Position numbers and translations under genes: made by a program. Source: Monopterus albus (taxonomy: Eukaryota). From it: 19,970 nucleotides of DNA. Below the pieces are notes generated by a model. That model did no database searches. It was not told the origin of the DNA and worked only from the letters and a program-made list of their open reading frames with translations. Below, piece after piece: positions 1,554 through 19,970 of this stretch. Location of the stretch: contig NW_018128417.1 in the NCBI RefSeq assembly GCF_001952655.1, positions 11,996 through 31,965 on the forward strand, given 5' to 3'. The stretch's first letter is position 1, and every line of letters starts with the position of its first letter.

Positions 1554-1568
1554 GGTTGGGGACCACTG
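1554..1568 (-). repeat. hAT-Charlie terminal inverted repeat (CAGTGGTCCCCAACC on minus strand)
   Basis: Seen in sequence. Starts with CAG as hAT TIRs do. Putative 8-bp target-site sequence ttctagtg at 1569-1576 cannot be verified without the other end. Confidence 0.55.
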
Positions 1569-2628: not shown

Positions 2629-2790
2629 GCCAGTCTGCCATACACTCTCATGGAGGTAAGTTGCGTTCGCTGCTGCTATACTAGCATAGCATGACAATTG
2701 GTACCTAAGTCTAAAACTGTTTTTGTTCCCTTTTAGTTAATTTGAATGCAACGGAGCTAAAGCTGTGCTGTTTTATGTTCTCTGTACCAG
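2629..2790 (+). repeat. Exon-like duplicated unit, copy A (27 bp + 81-bp GTAAGT..TTTTAG intron-like segment + 54 bp)
   Basis: 2629-2655 and 2737-2790 recur contiguously at 2823-2903. The intervening 2656-2736 starts GTAAGT and ends with a polypyrimidine run plus TTTTAG. Confidence 0.7.
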
Positions 2791-2822
2791 GTATTGTGCA
2801 TTTTAATTTATTTTATACACAG

Positions 2823-2903
2823 GCCAGTCTGCCATACACTCTCACGGAGTTAATTTGAATGCAATGGAGCTTAGGCTGTGCTGTTTTATGTTCTCTGTAC
2901 CAG
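2823..2903 (+). repeat. Exon-like duplicated unit, copy B (no intervening segment), followed by AATAAA at 2905-2910
   Basis: 81 bp co-linear with the two halves of copy A at ~90% identity. Separated from copy A by a 32-bp GT..AG spacer (2791-2822). Confidence 0.7.
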
Positions 2904-3402
2904 AAATAAAGACATTTGTAGCTGAAAGATTGTCTCCAGCCGGGTTAATCACAACGCAGAGTACCTCGACACGGATGTGACGAAATCATTCCGCTACACA
3001 AGCACGTGTAATACCCACAGTATTTAAGGTATTTGCTTTTCCATTAGATATTTCAAAAAGTTTTTGTGCAGCCAATTCTAGAACAAACTCTCACAAAAAC
3101 TAAAATGAAGTGAAAAACACATGCTAGTTTGTCTTCTAGCTAAATCTTACTCGACAGGTATTACAGTACGCAGATATTGTTGCTTCAGGACCTGGGCTAA
3201 ATGGTAAAACATGTAAACTTAGTGACAAAGAGTGACTGTGGCTTCGACACGTGCTATCTAAATGACCACTTAGAAAAACTGCTTCACTCTATTTAATCCG
3301 TTTGTGTTTTCTGCTTTTTGAACTTACAGCCTACAATAAAGATGCTTAAAGGCAGCTGTATATCTAAACAAAAGCAATCAGGTTACTTAGGTATAACCAG
3401 TC

Positions 3403-3665
3403 ATGCAGCATCAGATTTCTCCAACTACTCCAACCTGGTTTTTTTGGTTCCTTCGGCTGCTCCCTGCCAGCATCAAATACATTAAGTATCTGATGCTGGA
3501 TGCCAATCCTGACAAGTTAAAAGCCACCAGTCAACCCAAGATGCATGTTTTTGGACTATGGAGTACCCGGAGAGGACCCATGCAGCAATGGTGATATATA
3601 CAAACTCCACTCAGAAAAGTCAGCCAGAAGGTTCAAACGTGGAACCTTCTTGCTGTTAAGTCTAG
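3403..3665 (-). mobile_element. tRNA-derived SINE fragment with Deu-type central domain, 5' head truncated
   Basis: Contains ..catgtttttggactatggagtacccggagaggacccatgcagcaatgg...caaactccactcagaaaag...ggaaccttcttgctgttaag. From memory this is colinear with the widespread teleost SINE core (..ggagtacccggagaaaacccacgcag..gagaacatgcaaactccacacagaaagg..gaacccaggaccttcttgctgtgagg..). The tRNA head would lie at the high-coordinate end and is missing. Confidence 0.5.
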
Positions 3666-3971
3666 TCCAGCGTGGACGTATCTAACATTTGTTCAGTGGA
3701 GACAGCCCTACAGTACATAGACTTCCAAAGGCTATGGTTTTAGTTTAACAGATATTGGATGGGGTTATTTTGAACCCGAGGATGGACTGAACCGGAAACT
3801 GTAGCCACTTATCAGTGGTCAAAAGACATGGCAACCACTATTGTAATCTGATGAGACAGACAAGGCAGATGTTTCCAGTAAGATCTGGAAACCTGTACTG
3901 AAACCTTTTCACAGTGAATGCTAATGCCCTGTGCCCAGTGGAAAACACCTGGCTATGTAAATCTTTGGTCA

Positions 3972-3977
3972 TTTATT
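3972..3977 (-). promoter_or_regulatory. Candidate polyadenylation signal (AATAAA on minus strand) for the VWA5A-like gene
   Basis: Plus tttatt at 3972-3977, about 270 nt downstream (minus sense) of the stop at 4245-4247. Confidence 0.35.
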
Positions 3978-4244
3978 TCACCTTAACTGTTTTTTTATGT
4001 CCCTATAAAACAAACATACAGCATGTCTTAAAAACAAGATGATTAAAAGCTCAGTTATTGTGTATGTAGCCTATCAGGAATCAGGTTACAGCAGAAAGCC
4101 AACTGTATTTTGCCATGTACGGGCATGGATTTGCACCGACAAAGTTCAAAGAACTTTAGACAAAGAAATGCTGCGTATCTATGTAAGAAAAGCTACAAGA
4201 TCATCTCAGGCTCGTCTCTCTCTCACACCATCTTGTCTTCATGC

Positions 4245-4452
4245 TCAGTGGACAAGTAGAGGGGCTGTGGTCAGCTGCAGGTTCAATCCCCTGAGAGGTG
4301 AGAAGGGAGGCAGGTCTTCGTAGCCCAACAGCTGACGGGTGGATGCCTCCCAGCTCCAACCAAACTCCAGCCGGCTGTAGGCACATGGGTACTGCCGGTC
4401 AGCCCAGCAAACCCAGTCCACCGCCCTCTTCACCTCCTCCCAGTGCTCAGAC
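4245..4452 (-). CDS. VWA5A-like gene, terminal coding exon (..SEHWEEVKRAVDWVCWADRQYPCAYSRLEFGWSWEASTRQLLGYEDLPPFSPLRGLNLQLTTAPLLVH*)
   Basis: Acceptor ctttctctaccag|GTCTGAG at 4453-4454. The frame continues from the previous exon (..CCT AG|G TCT..). The segment KCEWELLERKAVAWMRAH from my recollection of human VWA5A aligns with SEHWEEVKRAVDWVCWAD. Stop TGA at 4245-4247. Confidence 0.55.
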
Positions 4453-4599
4453 CTGGTAGAGAAAGTCAGACATTATCAAAGGAGGAAGCTGCTCTGAGAA
4501 CAGTTGGCCGGGTTTACAAAATCATCCAGAGCAAACAGATTAAATAAATTATGATACTTTAACAACCTGGCATTATTATTTATATGCATTTCTTTTATA

Positions 4600-5230
4600 A
4601 GGTGTGCTTTATGGGACATTGGAATTTATCACATTTACAAAAAGAACTGATACTTTGATCGATTCTTCTTACAGATCAGTTTCTCCTCTGATGCCACAAG
4701 TGTTCATGTTTGATTTCTCCACTGCTCTATGTTTGTACCTTATTTGGACTACTGTGTTGAGTGTTGGGGAAATACATACAAAGCGCATTATGCTCATTAT
4801 TTAAACTACAGAAAAGGGCCATTAGAATTGTTCATGGACTTGGTTATAGGGATCATACAAATTCATCATTTGCACATTCAGGATTTTTAAAATTTTTTGA
4901 CTTAGTAAAATACAAATCTGCTGTATTTATGTATAAAGTCAGATATAATTTGGTGGCAAGTGTTATTCGGGGTCTGGTGATCGAGAGGGTGGTTATGGAT
5001 TGAGGGGCCACTTAAATTTAAAAACTCAGGCCATACGTACAACTAGGAAAAGTTTTTGTATATCTGTGAGTGGTGTAAAATTATGGAATAGATTGGGTGA
5101 TGATTTAAAACAATGTACAAGTGTAAAACAATTTAAGAATAAATATAAAAAGGCCTGCATAGCTGGGTATTGTTTTAAGTTATTATCGGTGTATTTATGG
5201 GTGGGATATGAATAATTTATTGTTTATCAT
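4600..5230 (+). mobile_element. Non-LTR retrotransposon ORF2 C-terminal / 3' tail fragment (RTE/Rex3- or L2-like), frameshifted
   Basis: Three consecutive plus ORFs (..KLQKRAIRIVHGLGYRDHTNSSFAHSGFLKFFDLVKYKSAVFMYKVRYNLV.. / ..RGHLNLKTQAIRTTRKSFCISVSGVKLWNRLGDDLKQCTSVKQFKNKYKK..). The pattern ..TN..F..LKFxDLVK..K...GxKLWN.L....K is typical of the extreme C-terminus of fish LINE ORF2. Confidence 0.45.
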
Positions 5231-5496
5231 TTGTTTGCCAATTATGTAAATGTGATTTGTGGTTAGAAGGAATGTAGTAATTTGGTGGTTGCGGGAATTT
5301 AACCAGTGTAGTCGTTTAGTTAAATATTTGGGTTGTGTCAACCATAGTTTGGATCACTAGGGGTAGAACTAGATAAGTATTACTTCTTTCTACTCCCTTG
5401 CAAGCATGTAATGACTAATCATCATCAAGAGAAATTTCTATTTTTTTGGTTGTATATGGTAATTGGTTTGGTTGTTTTGTGTTACATGTTGATTTC

Positions 5497-5560
5497 TTTT
5501 TTTTTTTTTTCTCTGTTTCTCTGTTTTATTACATGCTTGGAATAAATAAATAAATAAATT
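5497..5560. repeat. Simple repeats: T14 homopolymer (5497-5510) and (AAAT)5 microsatellite (5541-5560)
   Basis: Seen directly. Confidence 0.9.
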
Positions 5561-5619
5561 TTGGATTGATCACGTCTTGTATTTTCTGTGACTTTTTTTG
5601 ATCTAATTTAGGTTGTAAC

Positions 5620-5700
5620 CAGTGGTGGAATGTAACTAAGTACATTTACTCAAGTACTTCTTTTTTGAGGTACTTGTACTTTGAGTATTTTCTTCTCATG
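5620..5700 (+). mobile_element. Tol2-like hAT terminal fragment (CAGTGGTGGAATGTAACTAAGTACATTTACTCAAGTAC...GAGGTACTTGTACTTTGAGTA)
   Basis: Starts CAG and carries repeated AAGTAC / TACTCAAGTA subterminal motifs like Tol2-type hAT ends. Another TTTACTCAAGTAAAG occurs at ~5895. I found no matching opposite TIR. Confidence 0.25.
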
Positions 5701-6068
5701 CCAATAAATATACAGCTAATACTTTTTATTAAACTACATTTAAATAAGAGATTGAGTTACTTTACAAATCAAGATTTTTTTGCAGACAAAACATGGCAAC
5801 TATTTTGATAAATACTGATGTAATTTTTCATGACAAAGTGCTATTGTCATATTTCCTGTATTTCATGGCTCCAGCTCCTCAGATATGAAAAAGCAAAGAG
5901 GAGTTTTACTCAAGTAAAGGATCTGAATACTTCATCCTCCACTTTTCAACACGTATTTTGGCTGCACATTGAACCTTTGAGACTAGACTAAGGATGTGTT
6001 TTTAAAAATACTTAGAAAGGCATTTATTTTACATTGCTTTACATTGTTGTGACTAGCTGAGGACTGAC

Positions 6069-6201
6069 CTAGGCTGAGAGGAGTCGTCCAGGCGGAAGAG
6101 GGTGTGCAGCAGTTTGCCTTCCTCCAGCCTCTCCACCCTCATCAGCTGCAGAACCAGGAGAGTCGCCAGTAACCTCAGGATATCCGCATGGGCCCTCACA
6201 C
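6069..6201 (-). CDS. VWA5A-like gene, penultimate coding exon (..VRAHADILRLLATLLVLQLMRVERLEEGKLLHTLFRLDDSSQP..)
   Basis: Acceptor tgtgttgtgcag|GT.. at 6202-6203. Donor CCTAG|gtcagt at 6067-6068. Open in one frame only, and phase-compatible with both neighbours. Confidence 0.55.
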
Positions 6202-6637
6202 CTGCACAACACACATGGTTTTAACACTGGTGGGAACCAAAGCTCCAGTCCCGGTTGAGATGTCTGTACTAGTTATTAACAACAGGCCACACTGACAAAA
6301 ACTGAACTGTTTGCTATGTCACAACTTCACAAGTACAGAAGATCCCAGTACAAACCGGCCACAGTAACATTTACTACATAGGAAAAGATGTTATTCATGT
6401 GCTTTTTACAATCTAGGCTGATTGTACCACTTCTTTACTGGCTGATGATGCTGTTAAAGCAGAACTGTGAGAACTAACCTGTTCACACAATGAAATTGGA
6501 AAATTGGCGCCAGCTTTCAGGTAATGGTAGTATTTCTAGTAATGATGGCTCTTCTAACCTTACTTTGAATCATGATTTTGCACTGAATATGCAACGTTTC
6601 ATTAGGTTTTTGTCGTACAGGTTCTGTGAGCTCTCAC

Positions 6638-6740
6638 CTAGAGAACGGATGCCCTTGTTTTGCAGGTACACGTTGGCAAAGAGATCTACGTCAACATTTA
6701 TGGATTCACCCAGCTCTGTGGTTAACTCCCAGTAGCCCTC
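6638..6740 (-). CDS. VWA5A-like gene, coding exon (EGYWELTTELGESINVDVDLFANVYLQNKGIRSL)
   Basis: Acceptor gtgtgttgcag|GAGGGC at 6741-6742. Donor TCTCTAG|gtgaga at 6636-6637. Aligns to the recalled human VWA5A segment NGSWDLNEDLAKILGMSLEEI. Confidence 0.55.
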
Positions 6741-7124
6741 CTGCAACACACATTACAGGTTTTCCCTTCATTCAAGCTTAAAACAGTTTTTCATGAATAT
6801 ACTGTCAATAACAATGTAGATTGCAACAAATATGTCCCACATGATCATGCATCTCTGCGCCAGGCCATCTGAAAATGAACACTAAACCAACACAATGAGT
6901 GACAGAAATAATATACTGTAATCCACTTAGTTTGAATAAAACAAGTCCTCTTAATTTCACAGTTTCAGCCTATTAGACTAAACAGGTATGTGTCTCAAAC
7001 ACATTCATGGCAGTAAAAGAAGAGACACAGCTAATAAAATTCTTTGGGGCAGCAACAATGACAACATTACTTTCATACAACTATACATGTGCTGTAAATG
7101 AAGCTAGGCCATTATTAATGTTAA

Positions 7125-7500
7125 TCAAATTAACTCCTCCACACTGACCATGGTTTGTTGGCACAACACTGGTTTTTCCAGCCTTTCTGAGTAGCTCCTC
7201 TTTGCTACTCTGATCTCCTTTGTCAGTGTGTTTCTAGCCTGCTTATACAGGGTCCTGTCCCCATTCTTGTAGGCCTCCTCTTTTGCGTGACAGAGCTGTT
7301 TGAGCTTCACTGTGAACCAAGGTTTAATGTATGTGCAGACAGTCTTAATGGAGGCACACACACACATGTCCTCACAGAAACTGATATAGTCAGTAAACTC
7401 ATCCAGGTCTGTATCTGCAGCCACAATAACACCCCAGTCTGTACAGTCAAAGCAGGCCTGTAGCAATGCTTGTCACCCAAACTGAGTCTGCTCACAGACA
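7125..7500 (-). mobile_element. Non-LTR retrotransposon ORF2 N-terminal-region fragment (family distinct from the 229-645 fragment)
   Basis: Minus ORF ..ACFDCTDWGVIVAADTDLDEFTDYISFCEDMC...IKPWFTVKLKQLCHAKEEAYKNGDRTLYKQARNTLTKEIRVAKRSYSERLE.. From memory this matches the ..CFDCTDW..F...DLDE.TD.V.SYI.FCED...P.K....N.KPW.T..I..L...K..AF..GD...YK.AR..L...I..AK..Y..KLE block of fish LINE ORF2. Confidence 0.5.
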
Positions 7501-7590
7501 CACGCTGTCTGGTTCACTCAATCACAACATTGTTAACAAAAGGTTTGAGTCTTCGAACAGAGTTGGTGGTAACAAAAATCAAAGCTGATA

Positions 7591-8808
7591 CAGTGGAACC
7601 TTGGATTGCGAGTACCCCGGTTTGCGAGTGTTTTGCAAGACGAGTGTAGTGGTTAAAAATAAACAAGGTTCCAGAGGTAATATGTAATAGAACAGTATGC
7701 ACTTCATATATAGATATTATTTGTAATAGTTATGTAAGGCTGAGCTAAGTGTTTACAGAAGCTTGATCTGTTTCTTGCGCAAGCAAGAATATCTTGGGCT
7801 GTGTCCCCATTGTTTAACCTATGGGTCAACATCCCGAGTGACTTCCTCCTTAGATGGGGAATGGATAGCTGCAGCCTTATGTGAACTGTTCGTGTGCTCT
7901 GTTCAGGTTTAGAAAAAGGAAATGTGCGCTAGGTCAATGCGACCTAGAAGTTCATGTACTAGACATTTTTAGACAATGCTCGGAAGAAGTTTTGTGTGGG
8001 TAGCTGGCATGAGACTGTGTCTCATGCTCAGGCCATGGAAGGCTGTATAAGTGCAAGCAGATAAAAGGCTAGGATAGCTGGGTTAGAGCAGAAGAATTGA
8101 GGATGACAATGCCACTGTGAAAAGTGTTCCGGGGACCCAGGCCTGGGTGGGGAAACAAACTCAGGACTATGAACTCTGACTGACGGTACCTCGTGACCAA
8201 CAACAACTGACTGGACTGACTGGCGCTTTGACAATCTTCTTATTTAATACTTTATCTATCACATTGCAGGAGGAGTGACTCTGGTCTCCGTTCTCTGTTC
8301 CCTATCAGATCTTCTGTTTCACTATTACTCTGTTCAGAATAATTGTAATATTAAATGGTCATTTAAATTGGGATGATTTGTCTGAATTAATTTAGTCGGC
8401 TTCACACTCTAGCCATGACACAAGCAAAAACATTTTGATTCGATATACGAGTGAGGTCTCGCAATATGAGTAGTACGTACACTTTGTCTGCCGAGCATCA
8501 CGTGACGCAAGTCATAACTGAGCCGATGGTTCTCGCGCTTCACTCGTATAGTCAATATCTATACTGCAACAATGGCCCCTCACGCCAGCCACGATTCTTT
8601 TCAAAGGTCAAGTGCAGGTTAATGTTTTATTTTTACTTTATACTGTATTTTTTATTACTGTAATCATTTTTATATGGATAAGTGGGTGTGGAACGAATCA
8701 TCTGAGTTTCCATTATTTCTTATGGGAAAATTCGCTTTGATATACGGTTGCTTTGAATTACGAGCACATTGCTGGAATGAATTATACTCGCAATCCAAGG
8801 TTCCACTG
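7591..8808. mobile_element. Non-autonomous Tc1/mariner-superfamily DNA transposon (1218 bp) with perfect 24-bp TIRs and flanking TA
   Basis: Left end 7591 CAGTGGAACCTTGGATTGCGAGTA. Right end 8785-8808 TACTCGCAATCCAAGGTTCCACTG is its exact reverse complement. TA at 7589-7590 and 8809-8810. No transposase-like ORF inside. Subterminal ..ttgcgagtg.. / ..cgcaatatgag.. repeats. Confidence 0.65.
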
Positions 8809-9507
8809 TATTTTACTTGCCAGCAGGACATGCAAACTGTTCATTTATTCACACACCTGCACCTGCACCTGAATGAAATGCATCCATGATCCATGTTTTT
8901 AATTTCATCTGTTCAGTAGAAATGCTCACGTAGACCCATTAAAAATGCAAAATCTCTTACTGAATGCTGCATCTGGAAGATCTTTGTCCATTTGTGCGTT
9001 AGTGTTTCCGGATCAGCTGGTGTCATCCTGAAACAGCACAGTCACAACAGGACACTTGTCAGTGTGACAGCTGATGTATAATAAAAACGCATATGCCCAG
9101 GGATGTAAAGAAAACCACACACTTCAGCTGACTTGCTCTTCCTTCCACATGCATAAATGCACATATACAGAGAACACACAAAAACACCCTTCAGTCCACC
9201 AGCTAGTTAACAGCTGATTTCCTCTGGTCAGCTAAAGCCTTGTCAGCATTTAAAATGAGTACTCTGGCAACACTAATTGTTTTAAAAAACTTTTAATCAG
9301 ATTTTCTAAATAGAAGCATATTTAAAAAATGTATTATTCTAGGACTCACTCCACATCCAGTGCGTCCAGCACACCTGAAGTCTGAGGACATATTAGGGAT
9401 AACCTCTTCCTCCTTAAAACAGATGGACGTGCATCTCCAACATGTTCAGGTTCCCTCTGGGCCAGTCCGAATCCAAAACAAGAACGTGGTGGTTGAATTT
9501 TCTCTAC

Positions 9508-10524
9508 AGAATGGCTTAACAATTGCGCTTTTTCTACAAGATTAGGCTCAGTGTGGTCTGATGTCCCCAGAAATTGCACACTAGATTCATAGGAAGCGAT
9601 ATAATCTGAGTCCTGGTCAAAAGCAAAATTGGATATTGCCCCTTCATATGAGAAGACTTTGATTCCAGTTGTATCAGCTGCCATTACTGGGGCTAAAGAT
9701 GCTTCCTTTGCAAGATGTATAGGCACAGCTGCTGTACACAATTCCACAGAGACAGCGGAACTCTTCTCTGTGTCCAGAAGGTCAGGAGCTAATGAAGACG
9801 TCATTAAAGCACCCGTGGCTAATTCTTGAGCAAAGAAAGAGGGATGACTGCCTGAGTACATGGTAATGTCAGGTGAGGAGAATTCACCATGACGTTGCCT
9901 GAAGGCTCTCCTGTGTCCTGCTGACCGCTTCAATCGAGGCTCCATGTCACGAATGTTGCCTAAGAGGGCAGGAGGAGGAGCTGGGCAAGGAGGAGGAGGA
10001 GGAGCAGAGCCAGGAGGAAGAGGAGCTTGGCACAGAAGACGAGAAGCACGTCTAGGAGGGGGAGGGGCAGAGCAGGGAAGGGGAGGAGCAGAGCAAGGAG
10101 GAGGAGGAGCTGGGCAAGGTAGGGATGGAATCAACATAGTTTTAAGATAAGGAGATGGTCCAGGAAGAGCAGGAGCTAGGCGAGGAAGAGCAATAGGTGT
10201 GCCAGAAAGAGGGGGTGCTGGACAAGGAGCAGAACCAGAGTGAGCAAGAGCATGGAACGTACGAAGAATGTGGGGAGCAGGAGATAAAGAGAGTGCAGCA
10301 TTGCCAGAAAGAGGGGGGCAAGAGGTATCAAGACCTTCCATGAGGTCTATATCAGATAAGGCAAGTTCATCTTCAACAAAACTAACACCCATCGCTTCAT
10401 TTGATTCTGTGCCTGATTCCAATTCATGCGTCCTTTTTCTGCTCCTTTCCAACATTAGGTAATCCGAAAATGAAGCACCGTCTATTGGTAATTCCTCAGC
10501 CAAATCAGGTAAGGAGTAGCAAGT
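9508..10524 (-). CDS. VWA5A-like gene, large coding exon (339 codons) encoding a proline-rich low-complexity linker (..PCPAPPPPCSAPPLPCSAPPPPRRASRLLCQAPLPPGSAPPPPPCPAPPP..) followed by ..DHTEPNLVEKAQLLSHS
   Basis: Part of the 402-codon minus ORF 9346..10554. Proposed acceptor ttttctttatcag|ACTTGC at 10525-10526 is phase 0 and matches the upstream exon. Proposed donor CATTCT|gtagag at 9506-9507 is chosen because it joins ..NLVEKAQLLSHS to EGYWELTTEL in frame, mirroring the recalled human ..NHLVQLIYHQNA|NGSWDLNEDL. Exon boundaries are inference. Confidence 0.45.
9960..10140. repeat. Degenerate purine-rich minisatellite (GGAGGAGCAGAGC(A/C)AGG-like units) forming the proline-rich coding tract on the minus strand
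   Basis: Seen directly: ggaggaggagctgggcaaggaggaggaggaggagcagagccaggagg...ggaggagcagagcaaggaggaggaggagctgggcaagg. Confidence 0.75.
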
Positions 10525-10786
10525 CTGATAAAGAAAAGAAATTGAGAAAGCCAAAAAAAAAGTCAGAACCTATCTTAAAACAACTGCAATACAAACTTTT
10601 TTCCAGTTTATGCAATTAAATGTTTCTAGATCAGCTCTCTCAAAGCAAACTTTTAGGATTCCTGATCTAGGTTTTAACAAGTCCTTTCAGAATACCAGCC
10701 TGCCCCTGCTTTCACATTAAATGTCATTTTCTGTGAATCTCATGCAAAAAGACTGGAGTTATTATTATCATCCATAACTTCATATA

Positions 10787-12326
10787 CAGTGGGGAAAACA
10801 AGTATTTGATACACCGCCGATTATTCAAGTTTTCCCACTTACAAAGAATGGACAGATCTGTAATTTTCATCATAGGTACACCTCAACTGTGAGAGACAGA
10901 ATCTACAAAAAAATTCCAGAAAATCACAGTTAGATTTTTAAATAATTTATTTCCATTTTGTTGCATGAAATAAGTATTTGATACAATAGAAAAATAGAAC
11001 TTAATATTTGGTACCGAGGTCAGATGTTTCCTGTAGTTCTTGACCAGGTTTGCACACACTACAGCAGGGATTTTGGCCCACTCCTCCATACAGGTCTTCT
11101 CCAGATCTTTCAGGTTTTGAGGCTGTCGCTGGGCTCCCTCCATAGATTTTCTATTGGGTTCAGGTATGGAGACCGGCAAGGCCACTCCAGGACCTTGAAA
11201 TGCTTCTTACGGAGCCACTCCTTAGTTGCCCTGGCTGTGTGTTTGGGGTCACTGTCATGCTGGAAGACCCAGCCACAACCCATCTTCAATGCTCTTACTG
11301 AGGGAAGGAGGTTGCCCAAAATCTCGCGATACATGGCCCAATCCATCCTCTCCTCAATACGGTGCAGTTGTCCTGTCCCCTTTGCAGAAAAGCACCCCCA
11401 AAGCATGATGTTTCCACTCCCATGCTTCACGGTTGGGATGGTGTTCTTGGGATTGTACTCATCCTTCTTCTTCCTCCAAACACGGTGAGTGGAGTTTATA
11501 CCAAAAAGTTCTATTTTGGTCTCATCTGACCACATGACCTTCTGCCATGCCTCCTCTGGATCATCCAAATGGTCTTTGGCAAACTTCAGACAGGCCTGGA
11601 CATGTGCTGGCTTGAGCAGAGGGACTTTGCGTGCGCTGCAGGATTTTAAGCCATGACGGTGTAGTGTGTTACTAATGGTAACTGTTGAGACTGCGGTCCC
11701 AGCTCTCTTCAGGTCATTGGCCAGGTCCTCCTGTGTAGTTCTAGGCTGATCCCTCACCTTTCTCAGCATCACTGATACTCCACGAGGTGAGATCTTGCAT
11801 GGAGCCCCAGTCCGAGGGAGATTGACAGTCATCTTGAATTTCTTCCATTTTCTCATAATTGCACCAACACTTGCTCACCAGGCTGTTTGCCTATTGTCCT
11901 GTAGCCCATCCCAGCCTTGTGCAGGTCTACAATTTTGTTCCTAGTGTTCTTAGACAGCTCTCTCTTGCTATAGTGGAGAAGTTGGAGTCTGATAGATTGA
12001 GTGTGTGGACAGGTGTCTTTTATACAGGTAACGAGTTCAAACAGGTGCAATTAATACAGGCAATGAGTGGAGGATAGGAGGGCTTCTTAAAGACAAACTA
12101 ACAGGTCTGTGAGAGCCAGAATTCTTGCTGGTTGGTAGGTGATCAAATACTTATTTCATGCAATAAAATGGAAATAAATTATTTAAAAATCTAACGGAAT
12201 TTTTTTGTAGTTTCTGTCTCTCACAGTTGAGGTGTACCTACGGTGAAAATTACAGATCTGTCCATTCTCTGTTAGTGTGAAAACTTGAAAAATTGGCAGT
12301 GTATCAAATACTTATTTGCCCCACTG
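10787..12326 (-). mobile_element. Tc1-like (Tc1/mariner, IR/DR-type) DNA transposon, full length (1540 bp) but inactivated
   Basis: Ends CAGTGGGGAAAACAAGTATTTGATACACC (10787-) and GGCAGTGTATCAAATACTTATTTGCCCCACTG (-12326) are inverted repeats. Inner copies of ..AAGTATTTGATACA.. lie at ~10970 and ~12135, giving an IR/DR structure. TA at 10785-10786 and 12327-12328. The DDE transposase lies inside. Confidence 0.9.
10883..12050 (-). pseudogene. Tc1-family DDE transposase, split across three frames (frameshifted; initiator Met lost)
   Basis: ORFs 11853..12050 (..[29 protein letters not shown]..), 11110..11856 (..[11 protein letters not shown]...[13 protein letters not shown]...[10 protein letters not shown]...[17 protein letters not shown]..) and 10883..11185 (..[31 protein letters not shown]..) are colinear with Sleeping Beauty/Tc1 transposase (helix-turn-helix, DD(34)E and C-terminal motifs). 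Confidence 0.9.
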
Positions 12327-12470
12327 TATCAACAGTAACTTACCAATGAGCAAATGAATGAGCACTGCTTTGCTTTATCAATATGAGTGTGATGTCGCAC
12401 AAGGATATGGGACTCATTAATTAACAATTAACATTTAGGACTCATTAACCTAATAAGTGTTACTTATTAT

Positions 12471-12488
12471 CCCCCCCCCCCCCCCCCC
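12471..12488. repeat. C18 homopolymer
   Basis: Seen directly, about 145 bp from the Tc1 element end. Confidence 0.95.
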
Positions 12489-12767
12489 ACTTTTCCTGCT
12501 TTAAAAAACAACAGCTCACTCTAAAGAATGCATTTGTCTTCCCCAGCAAGAAATTACAAACATGCCGTTGTGGTTTATGTATGAAGGGAATTGGTGAATA
12601 ATGTGGAGAGGCTGAGGCCTGCCCATCATAGTTCAACAAAGAGACAAAGAGATAAAAGCAGGACTAGCACATACCAACAGGTAAATTTGCTCTTTCCCCT
12701 CTCCCTGGTTATACTACACACTGTGTGATGTTACCTCCAAAAAAAACCAAAAGAAAAAAAAACATAC

Positions 12768-12911
12768 ATCACATAGTACATCTGACAGTTCTTTGTCCTC
12801 CTCTTCACTATGCTCAGGAGAAATCCAGCTGATGTATGTGAGGATGTCCACATCTTCCTCTGCAATCAACTTGGGGATGTCTGTGAAACCATCCTCTGTT
12901 TGTTCTGGGTC
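12768..12911 (-). CDS. VWA5A-like gene, coding exon (DPEQTEDGFTDIPKLIAEEDVDILTYISWISPEHSEEEDKELSDVLCD)
   Basis: Acceptor cttccatattttag|GACCCAG at 12912-12913. Donor GAT|gtatgt at 12766-12767; an alternative donor GAT|gtacta lies 9 nt upstream. Open in one frame, phase 0/0. Confidence 0.45.
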
Positions 12912-13006
12912 CTAAAATATGGAAGAGGAGTTTGGTTGGGAGCTACCAGAAGTGGATACAAATAAAAAGGTAGAAATGTTTAAAATCCAGTGACAACTGC
13001 ACAAAC

Positions 13007-13102
13007 CCTTTCCTCAATGGCCACAAAGCTGGTGAACTGAGACAGGATGGAGAACTCTCTGCTCAACCCAATGATGAAGGATTTCAGCTCCGCTTTCTTC
13101 CC
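13007..13102 (-). CDS. VWA5A-like gene, coding exon (GKKAELKSFIIGLSREFSILSQFTSFVAIEER)
   Basis: Acceptor ctctcttccag|GGGAAG at 13103-13104. Donor GGAAAGG|gtttgtgc at 13005-13006. Matches the recalled human VWA5A segment ..KKDALNLSLESGVISSFTAFIAINKE.. Confidence 0.6.
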
Positions 13103-13202
13103 CTGGAAGAGAGGGAGAGAAAATAAACCATGTGGAGCTCAGACTGGATTTAAACTGAGGTGTGTTGCTTTTGGCCTCACTCAATGACACACACAAACGC
13201 AC

Positions 13203-13319
13203 CTCATGTTCAGCTTCATCACTATCCAGGCTTCCGTCTTCATAATCCCTGATGAGGGCCCTTGCTGTGAGCTTGTGAAGAAACTGAACACATACATCAA
13301 TACACATTATAATCATCAC
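13203..13319 (-). CDS. VWA5A-like gene, coding exon (..IDVCVQFLHKLTARALIRDYEDGSLDSDEAEHE)
   Basis: Donor CATGAG|gtgcgt at 13201-13202. Matches recalled human ..PDVNLTIHRLAARSLLQTKDMG... The 5' boundary is uncertain: acceptor catgag|GTGATG at 13320-13321 gives phase 0. Confidence 0.5.
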
Positions 13320-13439
13320 CTCATGTTCATGATAATGACAGTCACCATCAATTAGTTGCCAGGTTACTCAGAGAAATCTGAGGGCTGTTTCACAAAACCT
13401 AGATAGTGCATTAAGCTGGGCTTTTCCAGTTATCCTGGC

Positions 13440-13652
13440 TGAACTTAGCTGTGAATCCATCCGTTATCTATACTGCTTATCCTGAAGAGGGTCATGGGGG
13501 GCTGGAGCCAATCCCAGCTGACACTGGGTGAGAGGCAGGGTCCACCCTGGACACGTCACCAGTCTATCACAGGGCTGACACAGACAGACAACCACAGACA
13601 CGTTCTTGGTGTGAGGCAGCAACGCTAATCACTGCACCACCATGCCACCCCT
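13440..13652 (-). mobile_element. tRNA-derived SINE (Deu-domain-type), internally deleted; tRNA-like head at the high-coordinate end
   Basis: Reverse complement of 13590-13652 reads GGGGTGGCATGGTGGTGCAGTGATTAGCGTTGCTGCCTCACACCAAGAACGTG, a tRNA-like head with A and B boxes. 13470-13560 (ggctggagccaatcccagctgacactgggtgagaggcagggtccaccctggacacgtcaccagtctatcacagggc) matches the tail of the same teleost SINE family as 3403-3665. Confidence 0.55.
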
Positions 13653-13774
13653 AGCCATGAAATGGATTCACAAAAGCAGTAGTGCATAAATTATCATGGA
13701 GATTTATTCTGTGCAGCCTCCTTAGTCCAGGCTAACAGCCAGGCTCCATTAATCCTATTCCCTTATCTGTTCTG

Positions 13775-14730
13775 TTAGCAGTCACTCTGTGTCTTATCAT
13801 CTTTATGCAGATGATGTTCAAATTTATTGCTCTTTTAATGACTCTGAGTTCCATTTTTTAGCTACATTGTTAGAGTGCTTGTCATCCATCAAGAACTGGT
13901 TTAACAGTAACTATCCTCATATAAACTCTAATAAGACTGAAGTGCTGATTATTGCGCCTGATAATAAGATCCCGTCAATCAGACAACGCCTTGGTTCATT
14001 GGGCTCCTCTGTCCAGTCGAGCCTCAGAAACCTTGGTGTTGTGTTTGATCACACTATGTCTCTCGATTGTCATGTAAGACAGGTGGTAAAAAATTGTTTT
14101 TATCATCTGAGGAATATTTCTAAATTAAGGCAAATGTTATCAAAGGTTGACCTGGAGATGATTATCCATGCTTTTATCTCTGCACGTCTTGATTATTGTA
14201 ATTCCCTTCTTATTGGTTACAATAAGTCAACTGTAAATCGTCTTCAGATTGTGCAGAATGCTGCAGTTTTTATCACCTAAAGAATATTTCTAAACTAAGG
14301 CAAATGTTATCAAAGGTTGATTTGGAAATGATTATGCATGCTTTTATCTCTGCACGTGTTGATTACTGTAATTCCCTTCTTATCTGTTACAATAAGTCAA
14401 CTGTGAATTATCTTCAGATTGTGCAAAATGCTGCAGTGAGGCTTTTAACAGGAACCCCTAGAAGAGCTCATATTACGCCTGTCTTATTTTCACTTCACTG
14501 GTTACCAGTCAGGTTTAGAATTGATTTTAAAATTTTAGTACTAACATTTAGGGCACTTCATGGTCAGGCACCTCAGTATATTGCTGACCTATTGACCCCA
14601 TATTTTCCGAAGCGTGCTCTCCACTCCTCAAGTCAGGCCATTTTAGTGGTCCCCAAAACCCGTTTGAAAACTAGGGGGGGCCTGTCTTTTCAGGCTCTGG
14701 CTCCCACAGTTACTGTTATATAGAGCCTGT
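13775..14730 (+). mobile_element. L2-clade LINE, 5'-truncated (RT C-terminal half plus 3' region)
   Basis: Plus ORF starts ..SYHLYADDVQIY (RT YxDD box). It continues ..IKNWF..NYPHINSNKTEVLII...LGVVFD..MSLDCHVRQVVKNCFYHLRNISKLRQMLSKVDLEMIIHAFISARLDYCNSLL.G..KST...LQIVQNAA(V)RLLTG..R..HITPVLFSLHWLPVRFRIDFKILVLTFRALHGQAPQYIADLLTPY..RALHSS...LVVPKTRLKTRG, the classic fish L2 ORF2 C-terminus. Confidence 0.75.
14097..14437 (+). repeat. 170-bp tandem duplication inside the L2 RT-coding region (copy 1 14097-14266, copy 2 14267-14437)
   Basis: Seen directly. ..ttttatcatctgaggaatatttctaaattaaggcaaatgttatcaaaggttgacctggagatgatt..ctgcagt recurs immediately with about 93% identity. At the protein level RNISKLRQMLSKVDLEMIIHAFISAR.DYCNSLL.GYNKSTVN.LQIVQNAAV is encoded twice. 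Confidence 0.85.
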
Positions 14731-14934
14731 ATGAATCATTCCACAAAAATGGTTGAAGTGCTGTCACTTAGCCTATTTTTACAGACACCAAAATCCTTAA
14801 AGTTGACATAATCATAGTAATTTCATTCTAATGACAAAACACAGATTATTCATCTGATGTTCAATTTTAGCAAATTAATTAAATGTCTTGTCATTTTGAG
14901 CATAGACCTACCTTTCATAATTTTTTCATGAATT

Positions 14935-15660
14935 CAGTTTCTTTCAAAAAAGAAAAAATCCTGACACTTGCAGACAACACGATGGTCATTGGCCTCATTC
15001 AAGACGGTGACGAGTCGGCCTACAGACGGGAGGTTGAACAACTGGCCCTGTCGTGCGGTCGTAACAACCTGGAGCTGAACACACGGAAGACAGTGGAGAT
15101 GATAGTGGATTTTAGGAGGAGCTCCACCACTCTATCTCCACTCACTATACTCAGCAGCACTGTTTCAGTCATGGAGTCCTACAAGTTCCTGGGCTCCACA
15201 ATCTCTCGTGACTTGAAGTGGGCAACCAACATCAGCACCATCATTAAAAAGGCATCAGAGGATGTACTTCCTGCGTCAGATCAGGAAGTTCAACCTGCCC
15301 CAGGAACTTTTGATTAAGGTCTATAGAGGAACCATCGAGTCTGTTCGCTGCTCATCCATCACTGTCTGGTTTGTTCCAGGAACCAAATAGGACAGGAACA
15401 GATTTCAGCGAACAGTCAGGACTTTGGAGAAAATCATTGGTGCAACCCTGCCCTTCATAGAGGACCTGTACACCTCACCGGTCAAAAAGAGGGCAGAGGA
15501 GATTTCTGCGGACCACTTACATCCTGGACACAAAGTGTCTGAACACCTTCCCTGTGGACGGCGTTACAGGTAAGACAAGCAGACACAGAGACAATTTCTT
15601 CCCCAGGCTATTACACTCTTGAACAGCCAGTCTATGTTTCCCCTTTTAACTTGTATATAT
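14935..15660 (+). mobile_element. CR1/L2-clade LINE (Rex1/Babar- or jockey-like), 5'-truncated RT C-terminal fragment with frameshifts
   Basis: ORF 14883..15317 ..LADNTMVIGLIQDGDESAYRREVEQLALSCGRNNLELNTRKTVEMIVDFRR....LSPLTI.SSTV..MESYKFLGSTISRDLKW..NISTIIKKA.. continues out of frame as ..YFLRQIRKFNLPQELLIKVYRGTIESV...ITVWF....RNRFQRTVRTLEKIIGATLPFIEDLYTSPVKKRAEEI..D..HPGH.....LPCGRRYR....QTQRQFLPQAITLLNSQ. This is the familiar fish LINE RT tail (..FFPQAIRLLN). Confidence 0.65.
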
Positions 15661-15884
15661 TTTGTATTTATTCTGTTTTTAATCGGGGGCCATTGGGCTG
15701 GAGTCAAATTCCTTGTATTTTTGATAATACTTGGCAATAAAGTTTATGCTTATTATTTCATCGGCTTTATTAAATGGAACACTGAAATAAAACAAATAAG
15801 CTAGCTAATCATTATTAATATTAAAGAGATATCACCCAACAAGCACAGTGCCATTCGTGCGAGGAGTCCGTTCATTTTCACTAC

Positions 15885-15953
15885 ACTACCTAAGCAACAT
15901 GCTGGCATGGTCAAATGGAACACAGCTTCTGTGTCAGTGAATGTGTGATCAAC
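15885..15953 (-). CDS. VWA5A-like gene, small coding exon (VDHTFTDTEAVFHLTMPACCLGS); boundaries tentative
   Basis: Open in one frame only. HTFTDTEAVFHL matches the recalled human KTFEDKVTFPL. Acceptor cacgag|GTT (weak polypyrimidine tract) and donor AGT|gtagtg are chosen to keep phase 0 with the neighbours. The alternative donor G|gtagtg gives phase 1 and no compatible downstream acceptor. Confidence 0.35.
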
Positions 15954-16641
15954 CTCGTGTTCTGGTGAAGAAAACAGTGAACACGGATTCATCCAAATTA
16001 CTTACACCTGGCTTCATCCAGCTAGGCATCCTCAACCTGGTTTGGCCTTCGTGAAACGTATTAAGCCAGGATGCACTTAACACACTTTCTCATGTTATCC
16101 TGGAATTTTTAATTCTGCTTTTGTGAAACAGCCCTCAGGTTATGTGGGTACCTAGTGTGTTTACATGCAGTCTAGTCACCTGGTAATGTAAATCTGTTTA
16201 TACATGCAGCAGATCATTACCCAGATTTCTCCTCCACCCGTGACTTATTTTGGAAGGATGGGCCACTGAATTCAATTGCATAGAGATAGAAAATGCTGCT
16301 TCCTGTCTTTTTTTTTCTACTGTATATCGGAGCGAACCGACAGCATAGCGAGAGAGACAAGACGGCAGACATAGTGGAGCGTCTTTTCACAGCACACTGT
16401 TTAAAATAATCCTGACACTCTTCTCTGCTACTTTCTTGTCTTCAGTGTTTTATCGTGCATCTGCAGAAAGCCAGTGACCTCCAAGAGAAATCTAGCTAGG
16501 GAAATGAGGTTTTTGTAATCCCCTATATGATTACAAAAAATGAGTTTTGATTTGTTTAGTTTTTTTTTTGTTTAAATGACAGATTAATCTGCTGGAGAAA
16601 TCTGACTAACAGGTCAGTGTGTGTGCTTACTGTGCCCCTGG

Positions 16642-16722
16642 TCTTCTGCAGCTCGCTGGTCGACACCATCGTTTTAAGCTCCTGACCACTTAGGTTTCCA
16701 AGGAGGGTGGCCTGCAAAAATA
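16642..16722 (-). CDS. VWA5A-like gene, coding exon (ATLLGNLSGQELKTMVSTSELQKTRGT)
   Basis: Acceptor catatttttgcag|GCCACC at 16723-16724. Donor GGCACA|gtaagc at 16640-16641. Single open frame, 81 nt, phase 0/0. Confidence 0.45.
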
Positions 16723-16927
16723 TGCCAAATATTTCCTTGTTTATTGCTTCTTAAATATGAGACTTTGCTACATCTTATTGTACATTTTTATTGTTGTTTC
16801 TGACAAAAAAACTAATTTGCCGCAATTTCTTCAGTTTTTCTGCAATTTGAAGATGTCACCTTGCGCTTTGGGAAACTGAAGAGTTTCTAATATTTTATAC
16901 ACTAAACAATTAAGATGCAGTTCATAC

Positions 16928-17098
16928 CTGAGTGCAGTGTGGCACAAAGCCATAGACCAGGGTGTGGCAGTCATTGAACAGAGCATGGAGTTGCTTGGGG
17001 GCTTGTACAGGAGTAGGTGCTGTTGGGCTGAACTGCTGCCACTTCACTGAAACGGAACTGCAACCAGGAGACGTCATACGCTTCACCTGACGTGCCAC
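16928..17098 (-). CDS. VWA5A-like gene, coding exon (VARQVKRMTSPGCSSVSVKWQQFSPTAPTPVQAPKQLHALFNDCHTLVYGFVPHCTQ)
   Basis: Acceptor tgtgcctgtag|GTGGCA at 17099-17100. Donor CACTCAG|gtatga at 16926-16927. Aligns to the recalled human ..ALRTLKRSLQPAVEDVSLSWHLPPGLSAKMLSPEQTVIFRGQRLISYAQLTG. Confidence 0.55.
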
Positions 17099-18054
17099 CT
17101 ACAGGCACAACAGACATGTCACACTTAACAGCTGTTGTACTGGGAATGCAGTGGGACTGAAAAGATCCTCTTGTGAGACATGTCAAGTCCTAAGTCTTGC
17201 TTGATGAACATCATATATCCCCTGGGATGAAGCAGCAGATCCATTTGGACAAATACATATTTACAGCAAGACAAAAATGATAAATAAAAAAAAAACAAAA
17301 TGATCACACCTTGTTTTTTTTTTTTACTGAAAAGGCACTGATTATACAATAGTGCAACAACACCCTATAAGCCTCAAGGCCTGGACGAAAGCATTTATTA
17401 CATTAGTTCACAAATGCTGTTACAATAAAGGGGCTATGATTAGTGTTTTTTTAATAGCAGTGTACAGTACTGCACCAATGACAATGTGGAAACAAAGTGA
17501 CAATCTGAAAGGGGTCTTAGTGAAGAACCTACAGAGAATCAGTGTTTAGCTGTCTGGACCACGAGGTCACTGTTCTGGCTCACTCAAAGAGCTCTCGCAG
17601 TGTCGGTTTCAGACTCAGCAAGCAGCGGTTTTCAGTGACAAAGCTCTGAAAACCCACTGTTCAATCCACCAAATTGGAGACAGACAAAATTAGAGACTAG
17701 CTGGGGGAAACAGGATTTAGCAGCTAAAGGGCCAGAGATTTTCCTCAGGAGGTGGTAGAGACCAAAACAGAAAATAAATTGGACTGACATTCATCAGGTG
17801 GGCAGCGTCAATGATAATGCTGCTCCTTAAATGCTGAATAAGTAAGTTTGCTAATACAGTGTATATGTCACCACAAAACGTGTTCACAACTTGTTTCCAA
17901 TGCCCTGAAGTTGCCACAATATCAGTTACTGCAGGCTTGACTGTGAATCATTTATCTTAACTGAGGTACAGAAACAATATACTGCATTTTTTTCATCATA
18001 AAATCAGGAAAAATGAAAAAATTAAAACCACAATAATTACTAGCAAAAAAACAA

Positions 18055-18066
18055 CCCCCCCCCCCC
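18055..18066. repeat. C12 homopolymer (G12 on the gene strand), 35 nt inside the intron downstream of exon 18100-18199
   Basis: Seen directly. A further G6 on plus at 18083-18088. Confidence 0.95.
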
Positions 18067-18099
18067 ACCACAACACCTAAAAGGGGGGCGTCTTTTTAC

Positions 18100-18199
18100 C
18101 TTCTCTGCCCAGTTGTGCTTGGTTTTTGTGTCAAAGAATTCATAGGCTCCTCCTCCTGCCTGGGCCAGGGCTCTCAGCATGTGCCGATTGGCTGTCGAA
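18100..18199 (-). CDS. VWA5A-like gene, coding exon at the end of the VWA domain (STANRHMLRALAQAGGGAYEFFDTKTKHNWAEK); most upstream exon visible in the window
   Basis: Acceptor ccattacag|TTCGAC at 18200-18201. Donor GAGAAG|gtaaaaag at 18098-18099. Aligns to recalled human ..IKGIARASGGTSEFITGKDRMQSKA... Further 5' exons (VIT and most of VWA) must lie beyond 19970 or were not detected. Confidence 0.6.
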
Positions 18200-18299
18200 C
18201 TGTAATGGCACAGAGAAGCAAAAACACATATACCTTTAAAATGCCTGTAATAAAAAAAAGCTCAGTGTTCAGATGGTTGTTACAGCTATATCAGAAATG

Positions 18300-18905
18300 T
18301 TCATGTAAATGTGTTTGCCATTAGAGTGTGGTGGTTAGCAATAAATCAGATTCCAGAAGAAATATGTAATAGAACAGTATGTAGCTCATATTTGTTATTA
18401 GCTTGTGTAAGAGAGAGCTGAGTGGTTATGGGGTTATTAAGTTCATGTGAGTTGGGCTTATGTAAGGGGTCAGGATGTTTCCTGTTTTCGAAGTGCAGGG
18501 TTCCCGGAATAGAGGAGTGAGAAGGGGGGCCCGATAGACGTCAAGACTGACAAAGTCCAGCTGTTGTAAAATGGCTATATAGCTGATAAAGGAGTGAGCC
18601 TGAGGAAGAGAGAGGACCATGCGGCAGTGAACAGTAGACCATGTACCTTTTGGGGACCCAGCCGGCTGGGGAAGACGCTGACTGACTCGGGACTGACAAC
18701 CAATGACTTGACTGACTGGTGCTCTGGCAATCTTTAGGTTTTATCTATCACATTGCAGGAGGGAGGCTCTGTTCTCTGATCTCTGTTCCCCAACTACAAG
18801 ATTATGTGTCTAAATACTACTCTATTCAGAATAATTGTAATATTAAATGATCCTTTAAATTGTAATGGTTTGTATGAATTAATTTAGTCGGTATTACACT
18901 CTTGC
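18300..18905 (+). mobile_element. Truncated second copy of the internal region of the 7591-8808 Tc1/mariner-type non-autonomous element (no TIRs)
   Basis: 18320-18395 is similar to 7635-7710 (..gagtgt[a/g]gtggtta..aataaa..attccaga.gaaatatgtaatagaacagtatg..). 18700-18905 is similar to 8205-8425 (..ctgactgg.gct.tg.caatctt...ttatctatcacattgcaggagg....cagaataattgtaatattaaatg.tc.tttaaattg...tgaattaatttagtcgg..tacactct.gcca.gaca). Same orientation, about 80-85% identity by eye. Confidence 0.6.
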
Positions 18906-19689
18906 CACGACAAACCTTGGCGTTGTCTATGCAGGTAGGAGTCCCATTTTGACTGTCCTTAAAGAATTTGTGTGAAGGGGAACCAAATAACTTGATTGTA
19001 TCCTGACAGGTGGCTGGGAAAAACTACGGCAATTACTAACACTAACATCATTACTAATACTGATGTAAATAACTTGCTTTAAATGTTTGCAGGATACGGT
19101 GATGTTGTTTTTACATGCCTGAATTTTATGTAATAGTGAAACAAGCCTCTAAGGATTGACAGAGATAAAGTTATAAGTGGGAGACAGCGGAGTGAACAGC
19201 AGAGACTCAAAGTGCTTTCTGTTTGAGAATAAGTGTGGATTTTGATGTGTGTTTAAACAGGTACACATATTTTTTTTGGTGTGGAGATGCGTGTCTGAAG
19301 TTAGGGACAGAGGGAGTGATTGTGTGTATGGCAATTTCTTGTTGTTTTTGTGTCAATTTCATGTGTTTTTAGACTATTTACTGCTGAGGTGAGTATAAAA
19401 CTTATTTTTTTATTTTTGTGAAACAATGAGAATGTGTGGGGGGTATGATTCTCCCCCTCTTTGCTCCGTTTGTGTGTGTTCTACTATCGACTTCCTATAT
19501 GACCGAGTGTGTGTGTGAGTGAGAAGGTATAGCGCTTATTAACATTGTGTAAATAAGTAACTGTGTGTGTGCTGGTTGTTGTTGTTGTTTTGTGTGTGAT
19601 TGTGCTGTGCATGGTTGATGCTCTGAGGACAATAACGTATGAATGTAGCCTCCATTGGGTTGGACGAGATAAAATACATTTGAAAGGCA

Positions 19690-19890
19690 ATAGCATTGGA
19701 TTGGATAATGAACGGCATGAAATTGAGTTATGAGGTGTAAAATTGCCTGAATTGGATAAAAATATAGAATTTGAGGCTAAAGAGCAGAGTCTGACCTGCA
19801 GGTGGGTCTGCAGTAGAATTTGGCTTACATAACTCAGCATTGGATTGGCAGTTGAAAAGCTGTTAAAGCATTGGATTGGCTTTGTGAATT
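19690..19890. repeat. Cluster of ATTGGAT(T/A)GG motifs (cattggattggat / gaattggataaa / cattggattggcag / cattggattggct) plus palindrome ctgcaggtgggtctgcag
   Basis: Seen directly: four or five copies within about 200 bp. ATTGG is the reverse complement of a CCAAT box. Confidence 0.5.
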
Positions 19891-19970
19891 GTGTAATAAT
19901 ATATTATACAGTGAACTGTGTAAAAAGTTATTGAAATTAGGAGTAACGTTTCTGCAGTGCAGGCAGACTT

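Follow-up and report, generated by a model that had tools for sequence, protein, structure and literature searches.

The window analysed here is a stretch of 19,970 nucleotides from Monopterus albus (contig NW_018128417.1). Its minus strand carries, at positions 18199-4245, a spliced multi-exon coding gene that is almost certainly the 3' part of the teleost orthologue of PARP4 (vault PARP), comprising the last 11 coding exons and 785 codons (Table 1). A spliced minus-strand gene had been proposed at the locus by an earlier reading made without database searches (the original prediction), and per-exon tblastn against orthologues bears this out, with E-values of 1e-9 to 1e-34, well beyond chance. 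As that reading also held, the exons cover the final part of the VWA domain and everything after it up to the C-terminus, and it is to this part of the gene that our description of it as intact refers. The BRCT, WGR/PARP-catalytic, VIT and VWA exons, which make up roughly its N-terminal two thirds, would lie upstream, past the window on its high-coordinate side.

Table 1. Coding exons and intronic transposable elements in the window; a slash marks a splice junction.
Feature	Position	Strand	Remarks
PARP4 exon a	18100..18199	-	first in window; acceptor ccattacag/TTCG, donor GAAG/gtaaaa; its first base belongs to a split codon; codes for the last VWA residues, STANRHMLRALAQAGGGAYEFFDTKTKHNWAEK; 89% identity to Lates PARP4 (tblastn); human PARP4 alignment from residue 1006
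PARP4 exon b	16928..17098	-	171 nt, phase 0; canonical AG/GT; 91% identity to Lates and Platichthys PARP4
PARP4 exon c	16631..16711	-	81 nt; tttttgcag/GCC, ACA/gtaagc
PARP4 exon d	13203..13283	-	81 nt; gtgttcag/TTTCTT, GAG/gtgcgt; 93% identity to Lates and Platichthys
PARP4 exon e	13007..13102	-	96 nt; canonical sites; 88-91% identity to orthologues
PARP4 exon f	12768..12911	-	144 nt; attttag/GAC, predicted donor GAT/gtatgt; closes conserved post-VWA module, opens variable linker
PARP4 exon g	9350..10524	-	large, 1175 nt; linker; ORF open to 9346; predicted donor GGA/gtgagt at 9350
PARP4 exon h	8961..9027	-	67 nt; gtttcag/GATG, TCA/gtaaga
PARP4 exon i	6638..6740	-	103 nt; MINT domain; contains S671 and R675 (human S1614 and K1618)
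PARP4 exon j	6069..6201	-	133 nt; MINT domain
PARP4 exon k	4245..4452	-	208 nt; terminal coding exon; stop TGA at 4247-4245; contains R744 (human R1689)
LINE-like ORF fragment	7128..7472	-	intron h/i; ORF translation; putative assignment
Non-autonomous Tc1/mariner-type element	7591..8808		intron h/i; 1218 bp; perfect 27-nt TIRs, TA flanks
Tc1-family DNA transposon	10787..12326	-	intron f/g; 1540 bp; ~200-nt TIRs, TA flanks
LINE reverse-transcriptase fragment	13753..14720	+	intron c/d; antisense to PARP4; YADD motif
Second RT-like LINE fragment	14883..15314	+	intron c/d; ORF translation, motif recognised by eye

The assignment to PARP4 rests on several protein comparisons. In a word-index search, all 43 significant matches were PARP4 or PARP4-like proteins, many of them bearing PF26156 (PARP4 MVP-ID), with Lates calcarifer PARP4 giving the best score (E 1.8e-176). 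An exhaustive search placed PARP4 isoform X2 of Platichthys flesus (XP_062257934.1) at the top (E 5.2e-204), and the other top matches were again PARP4. This protein contains BRCT, PARP, VIT and VWA domains, the last of which is directly followed by the region that matches the query; the closest full-length relatives likewise combine BRCT, PARP-catalytic, VIT and VWA domains in one protein. Human PARP4 is the sole match in the PDB (9bw6/9bw7/11jf), where model residues 1-208 align with human residues 1006-1214 (E 1.5e-71) and residues 628-771 with 1572-1716 (E 1.8e-26), the second stretch being the MVP-binding MINT domain. Between the tail of the VWA domain and the C-terminus, the model is colinear with both human PARP4 (1724 aa; 9BW6/9BW7) and Platichthys PARP4, which differ from it in that the catalytic half lies outside the Monopterus window. 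Identity to the Platichthys protein is 88-93% across exons a-e and 50-82% across exons h-k. PARP4 has already been annotated in many teleosts, and the gene described here is an ordinary vertebrate gene, with nothing to suggest a new kind of system.

The encoded segment consists of four parts. The last ~20 residues of the VWA domain, from exon a, are followed by a post-VWA module of ~200 aa that is strongly conserved (human 1006-1214), a fast-evolving proline-rich linker of ~400 aa, contributed mostly by the single 1175-nt exon with its heptad repeats, and a C-terminal helical MINT / MVP-ID domain (human 1562-1724). In human PARP4 the MINT domain, residues 1562-1724, binds repeat domains 3-5 of the major vault protein, and S1614, K1618 and R1689 contact MVP in the cryo-EM structure (PMC12280208); the MINT-MVP interface is already structurally solved. 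These contact residues are kept or conservatively replaced in Monopterus, where they correspond to S671, R675 (a conservative K to R change) and R744. By homology, the domain would dock the enzyme within the vault cage, onto MVP repeat domains 3-5, and the M. albus protein probably binds vaults as well.

The exon model given here departs from the original prediction in several places. All 10 introns are bounded by canonical AG...GT sites, the phases are consistent, and the 785 codons end in a single terminal stop; the nearest AATAAA is at position 3977, 267 nt downstream of exon k. Seven of the 11 exons first proposed (a, b, e, f, i, j and k) coincide exactly with ours, four were wrong, and exon h had been missed. 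The segment 16722-16642, now replaced by exon c, had been given the wrong frame and bounds: its flanks are 'ca' and 'cc' rather than AG/GT, contrary to the claim of canonical sites at every boundary, and it holds the one internal stop in the earlier 2239-nt concatenation, whose reading frame is not open throughout. The corrected exon encodes ATLLGNLSGQELKTMVSTSELQKTRGT, and 28 of 28 residues are identical to Lates PARP4 (100%). Exon 13319-13203 had been over-extended at its 5' end, the true acceptor (gtgttcag/TTT) being at 13283, and 10524-9508 stopped short at its 3' end, the frame continuing to the donor at 9350. The candidate exon 15953-15885 is covered by no homologue, and we consider it spurious. 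The downstream frame had still worked because each of these errors changes the length by a multiple of 3 nt; frame-compatible junctions alone are no guarantee of correct exons.

Exon boundaries around the linker are placed with less help from homologues. The acceptor of exon f has the same position and phase as in the Lates exon. However, its donor lies in poorly conserved sequence and is placed provisionally, from the open reading frame, consensus sites and phase; the boundaries of exon g, in a similarly poorly conserved region, are predicted on the same grounds, and the phase of its donor at 9350 fits the next exon. The original prediction had instead spliced from 9508 to 6740, omitting exon h entirely along with the final 158 nt of exon g. 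This junction has a GT donor (CATTCT/gtagag) and keeps the frame, but it is improbable that it represents a real or major isoform. It would remove the conserved KWTKIFQMQHS at the start of the MINT domain (human 1572 onward), and the gtgagt donor at 9350 is a far better consensus than that at 9508. Moreover, the skipped exon h is conserved with Lates and Platichthys in both protein and DNA. It encodes (E)MTPADPETLTHKWTKIFQMQHS (..ADPETLTHKWTKIFQMQHS), a conserved stretch that opens the C-terminal domain and forms the N-terminal edge of the MINT / MVP-interaction domain, with 83% identity to Lates, DNA-level conservation at positions 5833-5936 of the Lates locus (L001) and a human PARP4 alignment that begins at residue 1572. 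The PARP4 transcript is probably spliced as in Table 1 and expressed in M. albus.

Within exon g, a 21-nt unit is repeated in tandem seven times (9970..10119, minus strand), and its translation gives Pro-rich heptads of the PCPAPPP / PCSAPPL type (TRF and translation). The exon is only 29% identical to its counterpart in Platichthys, another percomorph, yet the two remain colinear, and the Monopterus linker differs in having its own heptad repeat array. It is mildly interesting that a Pro-rich linker exon, presumably disordered, evolves fast between percomorphs while the adjoining modules stay 80-93% identical. A further idea, which we regard as a long shot, is that repeat turnover in this heptad array has remodelled the disordered linker and, separately, that TE-derived intronic segments such as 15953-15885 serve as minor alternative exons; either could change the tethering of the catalytic half inside the vault.

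Could this be a truncated duplicate or unprocessed pseudogene of the 3' half of PARP4, without functional upstream catalytic exons? The upstream exons lie outside the window, and databases hold short 'PARP4-like' models of the C-terminal part only (P0014, P0016), although these are most simply fragmentary annotations. A relic of this kind is nonetheless very unlikely, given that 785 codons are open and 10 of 10 introns canonical. Exon a opens mid-codon at a good acceptor, and therefore an upstream exon is required. In addition, the coding segment in the window is under purifying selection, with a dN/dS of ~0.16 against the Lates orthologue over 380 codons, a rough value in that a few of the codon pairs, which were taken from HSPs, reach into introns.

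The main value of the analysis lies in correcting the identity of the gene, since the tool-free reading had found the right superfamily and the wrong paralogue, VWA5A in place of PARP4. Its placement in the VIT/VWA superfamily and the view that the gene is apparently functional both stand. Protein searches, which had been expected to return VWA5A-like proteins at the top, returned PARP4, and none of the 43 significant matches of the word-index search was a VWA5A entry. The VWA5A peptides cited in that reading are genuine, occurring verbatim in entries P0184-P0186, and the colinearity it described is detectable, though weak; it covers model residues 7-53 and 119-190, which fall at the VWA end and within the post-VWA module. 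These short stretches show 32% identity over 47 aa (E 5e-4) and 26% over 74 aa (E 1e-3), and C-terminal VWA5A fragments have no detectable match to the window protein. In contrast, primate PARP4 is 58% identical to it in the post-VWA module (E 4e-74) and 40% in the MINT domain (E 4e-31). A single VIT-VWA family includes VWA5A, PARP4 and ITIH (PMC10539598), and the low identity to VWA5A relative to PARP4 therefore indicates that the seeming colinearity reflects distant paralogy within this family rather than orthology. The ~765-785 residues that follow the VWA domain, the PARP4-specific MINT domain among them, equal about the length of an entire VWA5A, and this region, with its linker of ~400 aa (mostly one 392-codon exon) and its MINT domain, is not the short C-terminus, free of Pro-rich linker and MINT domain, expected of VWA5A. 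VWA5A is not known to have the long Pro-rich linker or, at full length, a PARP domain. That the locus holds a VWA5A-like (BCSC-1-type) gene, encoding a VIT-VWA protein without a PARP domain, can be set aside for practical purposes.

The introns of the PARP4 gene are rich in transposable elements, and 0 exons are touched by these insertions, as the original prediction had stated. Of the elements it named, the Tc1 transposon, the MITE-like Tc1/mariner element and the LINE fragments were recovered, and a SINE was not confirmed. Taken together, the DNA transposons share with Tc1/mariner elements TA target-site flanks, CAGTG termini, long TIRs and, in the larger copy, transposase remnants of the HTH_Tnp_Tc3_2 and DDE_3 types. 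The larger copy departs from such elements in its interrupted transposase frame, and the 1218-bp copy in having no transposase at all, with no transposase-like ORF found inside it. The larger element has inverted repeats at 10784-10982 and 12142-12329, ends in TA/CAGTG...CACTG/TA and contains an ORF (11110-11856, minus strand) matching HTH_Tnp_Tc3_2 (1.7e-22) and DDE_3 (1.5e-9); because its transposase reading frame is broken, it is a decayed copy. Neither the second RT-like fragment nor the LINE-like ORF fragment in intron h/i has a Pfam match. The first LINE fragment matches RVT_1 at E 7.6e-6 and 26.2 bits, under the Pfam cutoff of 29.6, and carries an internal duplication of 170 bp x 2 at 14096-14437 (TRF).

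Transposon-expanded introns are typical of fish genomes. Conservation with the Lates locus at the DNA level is limited to exons and their immediate flanks, and the Monopterus gene differs from Lates PARP4 in its TE-enlarged introns, which grew by lineage-specific insertion of the Tc1, non-autonomous Tc1/mariner and LINE sequences. Intron c/d, for example, spans 3.3 kb in the window, compared with ~110 bp in Lates.

The minus-strand gene is a known one, the PARP4 orthologue of a percomorph fish whose closest named match is a flatfish protein. The original prediction had placed it in the VIT/VWA superfamily as a VWA5A-like gene; the superfamily and the architecture hold, but the gene named was the wrong one. 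When the conserved parts of the translation were used as query in a word-index search, 43 proteins matched significantly (best E 1.8e-176, Lates calcarifer). Those with a family name are called PARP4, 'poly [ADP-ribose] polymerase 4' or PARP4-like, and none is VWA5A. Many carry PF26156, the Pfam model of the PARP4 MVP-ID C-terminal domain; PARP catalytic, VIT and VWA domains occur as well in the longer proteins. When 1.84 billion representatives were searched exhaustively with HMMER, the top match (E 5.2e-204) was XP_062257934.1, 'protein mono-ADP-ribosyltransferase PARP4 isoform X2 [Platichthys flesus]', which contains BRCT, PARP, VIT and VWA domains and to which the query aligns directly after VWA.

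The sequence relationship to PARP4 is also seen among proteins of known structure. Human PARP4 (entries 9bw6, 9bw7 and 11jf) is the sole match among all PDB chains, with residues 1006–1214 aligning to residues 1–208 of the predicted protein (E 1.5e-71) and residues 1572–1716 to residues 628–771 (E 1.8e-26). The latter region is the MINT domain (human residues 1562–1724), which is bound to MVP (major vault protein) at its repeat domains 3–5 in cryo-EM structures (PMC12280208). The MVP-contact residues highlighted in the human protein, S1614, K1618 and R1689 (PMC12280208), correspond to S671, R675 and R744 here. A Pfam scan of the translation found no domain; the set searched lacked PF26156, so this result is uninformative for MINT, and P0002, a retrieved protein with a precomputed PF26156 annotation, likewise had no PF26156 match in that set.

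The peptides originally attributed to VWA5A occur verbatim in the short fragments P0184–P0186 retrieved by peptide search, so the attribution itself was accurate. P0188, a fragment named VWA5A, was retrieved with them. Short fragments were all that this search returned for VWA5A, and they sufficed for a direct comparison. In BLASTP against the predicted protein, P0186 gave 32% identity over 47 amino acids (E 5e-4) and P0185 26% over 74 (E 1e-3), and VWA5A C-terminal fragments gave no match. Primate PARP4 matched at 58% over 208 amino acids in the post-VWA module (E 4e-74) and at 40% over 144 in the MINT region (E 4e-31). ITIH, PARP4 and VWA5A make up the VIT-VWA family (PMC10539598), and the colinearity with VWA5A is distant paralogy within it. 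The post-VWA module (residues 1–220) was also found at 34–39% identity in four remote matches, P0128 (from an ENA sample), P0144, P0135 and P0124. These are VIT-VWA proteins with a downstream ubiquitin domain and no PARP domain; P0124 has no VIT match.

To correct the exons, several PARP4 orthologues were aligned to the window by tblastn and the sequences at the junctions were examined. All ten introns are bounded by AG and GT with consistent phases, and the 785-amino-acid product has a single, terminal stop. The model is colinear with Platichthys PARP4, with identities of 88–93% in exons a–e, 58% in exon f, 29% in exon g and 50–82% in exons h–k. Sensitive tblastn with Lates, Pampus and full-length Platichthys PARP4 found no upstream VWA, VIT or PARP exons in 18200–19970. 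Residues of full-length PARP4 before about 1020 have no tblastn match anywhere in the window, which places the exons for the catalytic, VIT and VWA domains past position 19970.

Features of the PARP4 locus, in window coordinates
Feature	Position	Strand	Location	Remarks
Exon a	18199–18100	minus
Exon b	17098–16928	minus
Exon c	16711–16631	minus
Exon d	13283–13203	minus
Exon e	13102–13007	minus
Exon f	12911–12768	minus
Exon g	10524–9350	minus		large Pro-rich exon
Exon h	9027–8961	minus		67 nt
Exon i	6740–6638	minus
Exon j	6201–6069	minus
Exon k	4452–4245	minus
Tandem duplication	14096–14437		intron c/d	170 bp x 2, 90% match
Tc1 element	10787–12326		intron f/g	TA/CAGTG...CACTG/TA ends; ~200-nt terminal inverted repeats
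Tandem repeat	9970–10119	minus	exon g	21 nt x 7
Non-autonomous Tc1/mariner-type element	7591–8808		intron h/i	1218 bp; perfect 27-nt TIRs (TACAGTGGAACCTTGGATTGCGAGTA), TA flanks
Conserved non-coding block	7469–7541		intron h/i	Lates locus L001 5961–6039
LINE-like ORF	7128–7472	minus		translation only
LINE-like ORF	4761–5212	plus		translation only
Conserved non-coding block	2029–2188		about 2 kb downstream of stop	Lates locus L001 9211–9381
Putative hAT-like ORF	731–1432	minus	downstream of PARP4 stop	234 aa, stop to stop

A spliced minus-strand reading frame with canonical boundaries had been predicted from 11 segments, and this is broadly real: seven exons were placed exactly, but four were wrong and one was missed. 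Joined, the segments span 2239 nt and contain two stops in the intended frame, one terminal and one internal. The internal stop falls in the third segment, 16722–16642, which is flanked by ggca and ccag rather than AG and GT and, being displaced by 11 nt relative to exon c, is read in the wrong frame; the other ten segments are bounded by AG and GT or the stop codon. No homologue aligns at 15953–15885 in tblastn with PARP4 orthologues, and this exon was dropped. Segment 13319–13203 has the correct 3' end but includes 36 nt too many at the 5' side, and segment 10524–9508 starts correctly but ends 158 nt before the consensus donor GGA/gtgagt of exon g. The donor at 9508 was rejected in favour of the one at 9350, being phase-incompatible with exon h, which its use would require skipping; this conserved exon (..KWTKIFQMQHS) was absent from the original list. 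The resulting length changes are multiples of three, so that the downstream frame still seemed to agree without adjustment.

DNA similarity between the window and the Lates calcarifer PARP4 locus (L001) is found, apart from the two non-coding blocks below, only at exons and their immediate flanks, and the Lates exon boundaries that can be checked coincide with ours. A rough Nei-Gojobori estimate over 380 aligned codons (dN 0.065, dS 0.40, dN/dS ~0.16) indicates purifying selection and, with the open frame and canonical splice sites, argues for a live gene, which is presumably expressed. Two non-coding blocks share 72–75% identity with Lates and may be conserved UTR or regulatory sequence, or else an old repeat common to both. 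In Lates, PARP4 is followed downstream by a gene for a C-type lectin (Lectin_C, L001 10341–10732); no equivalent was seen in window 1–4244, where there are TE-like ORFs instead.

As originally stated, no exon is interrupted by a transposable element, and the Tc1 element, the MITE-like Tc1/mariner element and the LINE fragments described in the introns are present. The proposed SINE had no tRNA-like or Rfam match in Rfam and ARAGORN searches of the whole window, which also found no RNA genes. The transposase ORF of the Tc1 element matches HTH_Tnp_Tc3_2 (1.7e-22) and DDE_3 (1.5e-9) in Pfam, and its broken frame marks a decayed copy. The 1218-bp element seems, from its perfect TIRs, to have inserted fairly recently. 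Intron c/d measures 3.3 kb in this window versus ~110 bp in Lates and contains antisense LINE reverse-transcriptase fragments (sub-threshold RVT_1 match, YADD motif), within one of which lies the 170-bp duplication. Several LINE-like ORFs and the putative hAT-like ORF have no Pfam match at E<=0.01, and their assignment to transposable elements is accordingly putative; the latter ORF looks similar to the C-terminal portion of transposase-derived proteins of the hAT/Buster type.

By homology with human PARP4, we infer that the protein of this species binds MVP. The helical C-terminal MINT domain (exons h–k) would contact MVP repeats 3–5 electrostatically and so hold the enzyme against the vault cage's inner wall (after PMC12280208), and the long, low-complexity Pro-rich linker of exon g would keep the N-terminal part, with BRCT, PARP, VIT and VWA, tethered in the vault lumen. 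Translated, the tandem repeat inside exon g gives Pro-rich heptads. At this site Platichthys PARP4 has a repeat array that differs from this one and is longer, and the PARP4 linker thus appears to evolve by repeat turnover.
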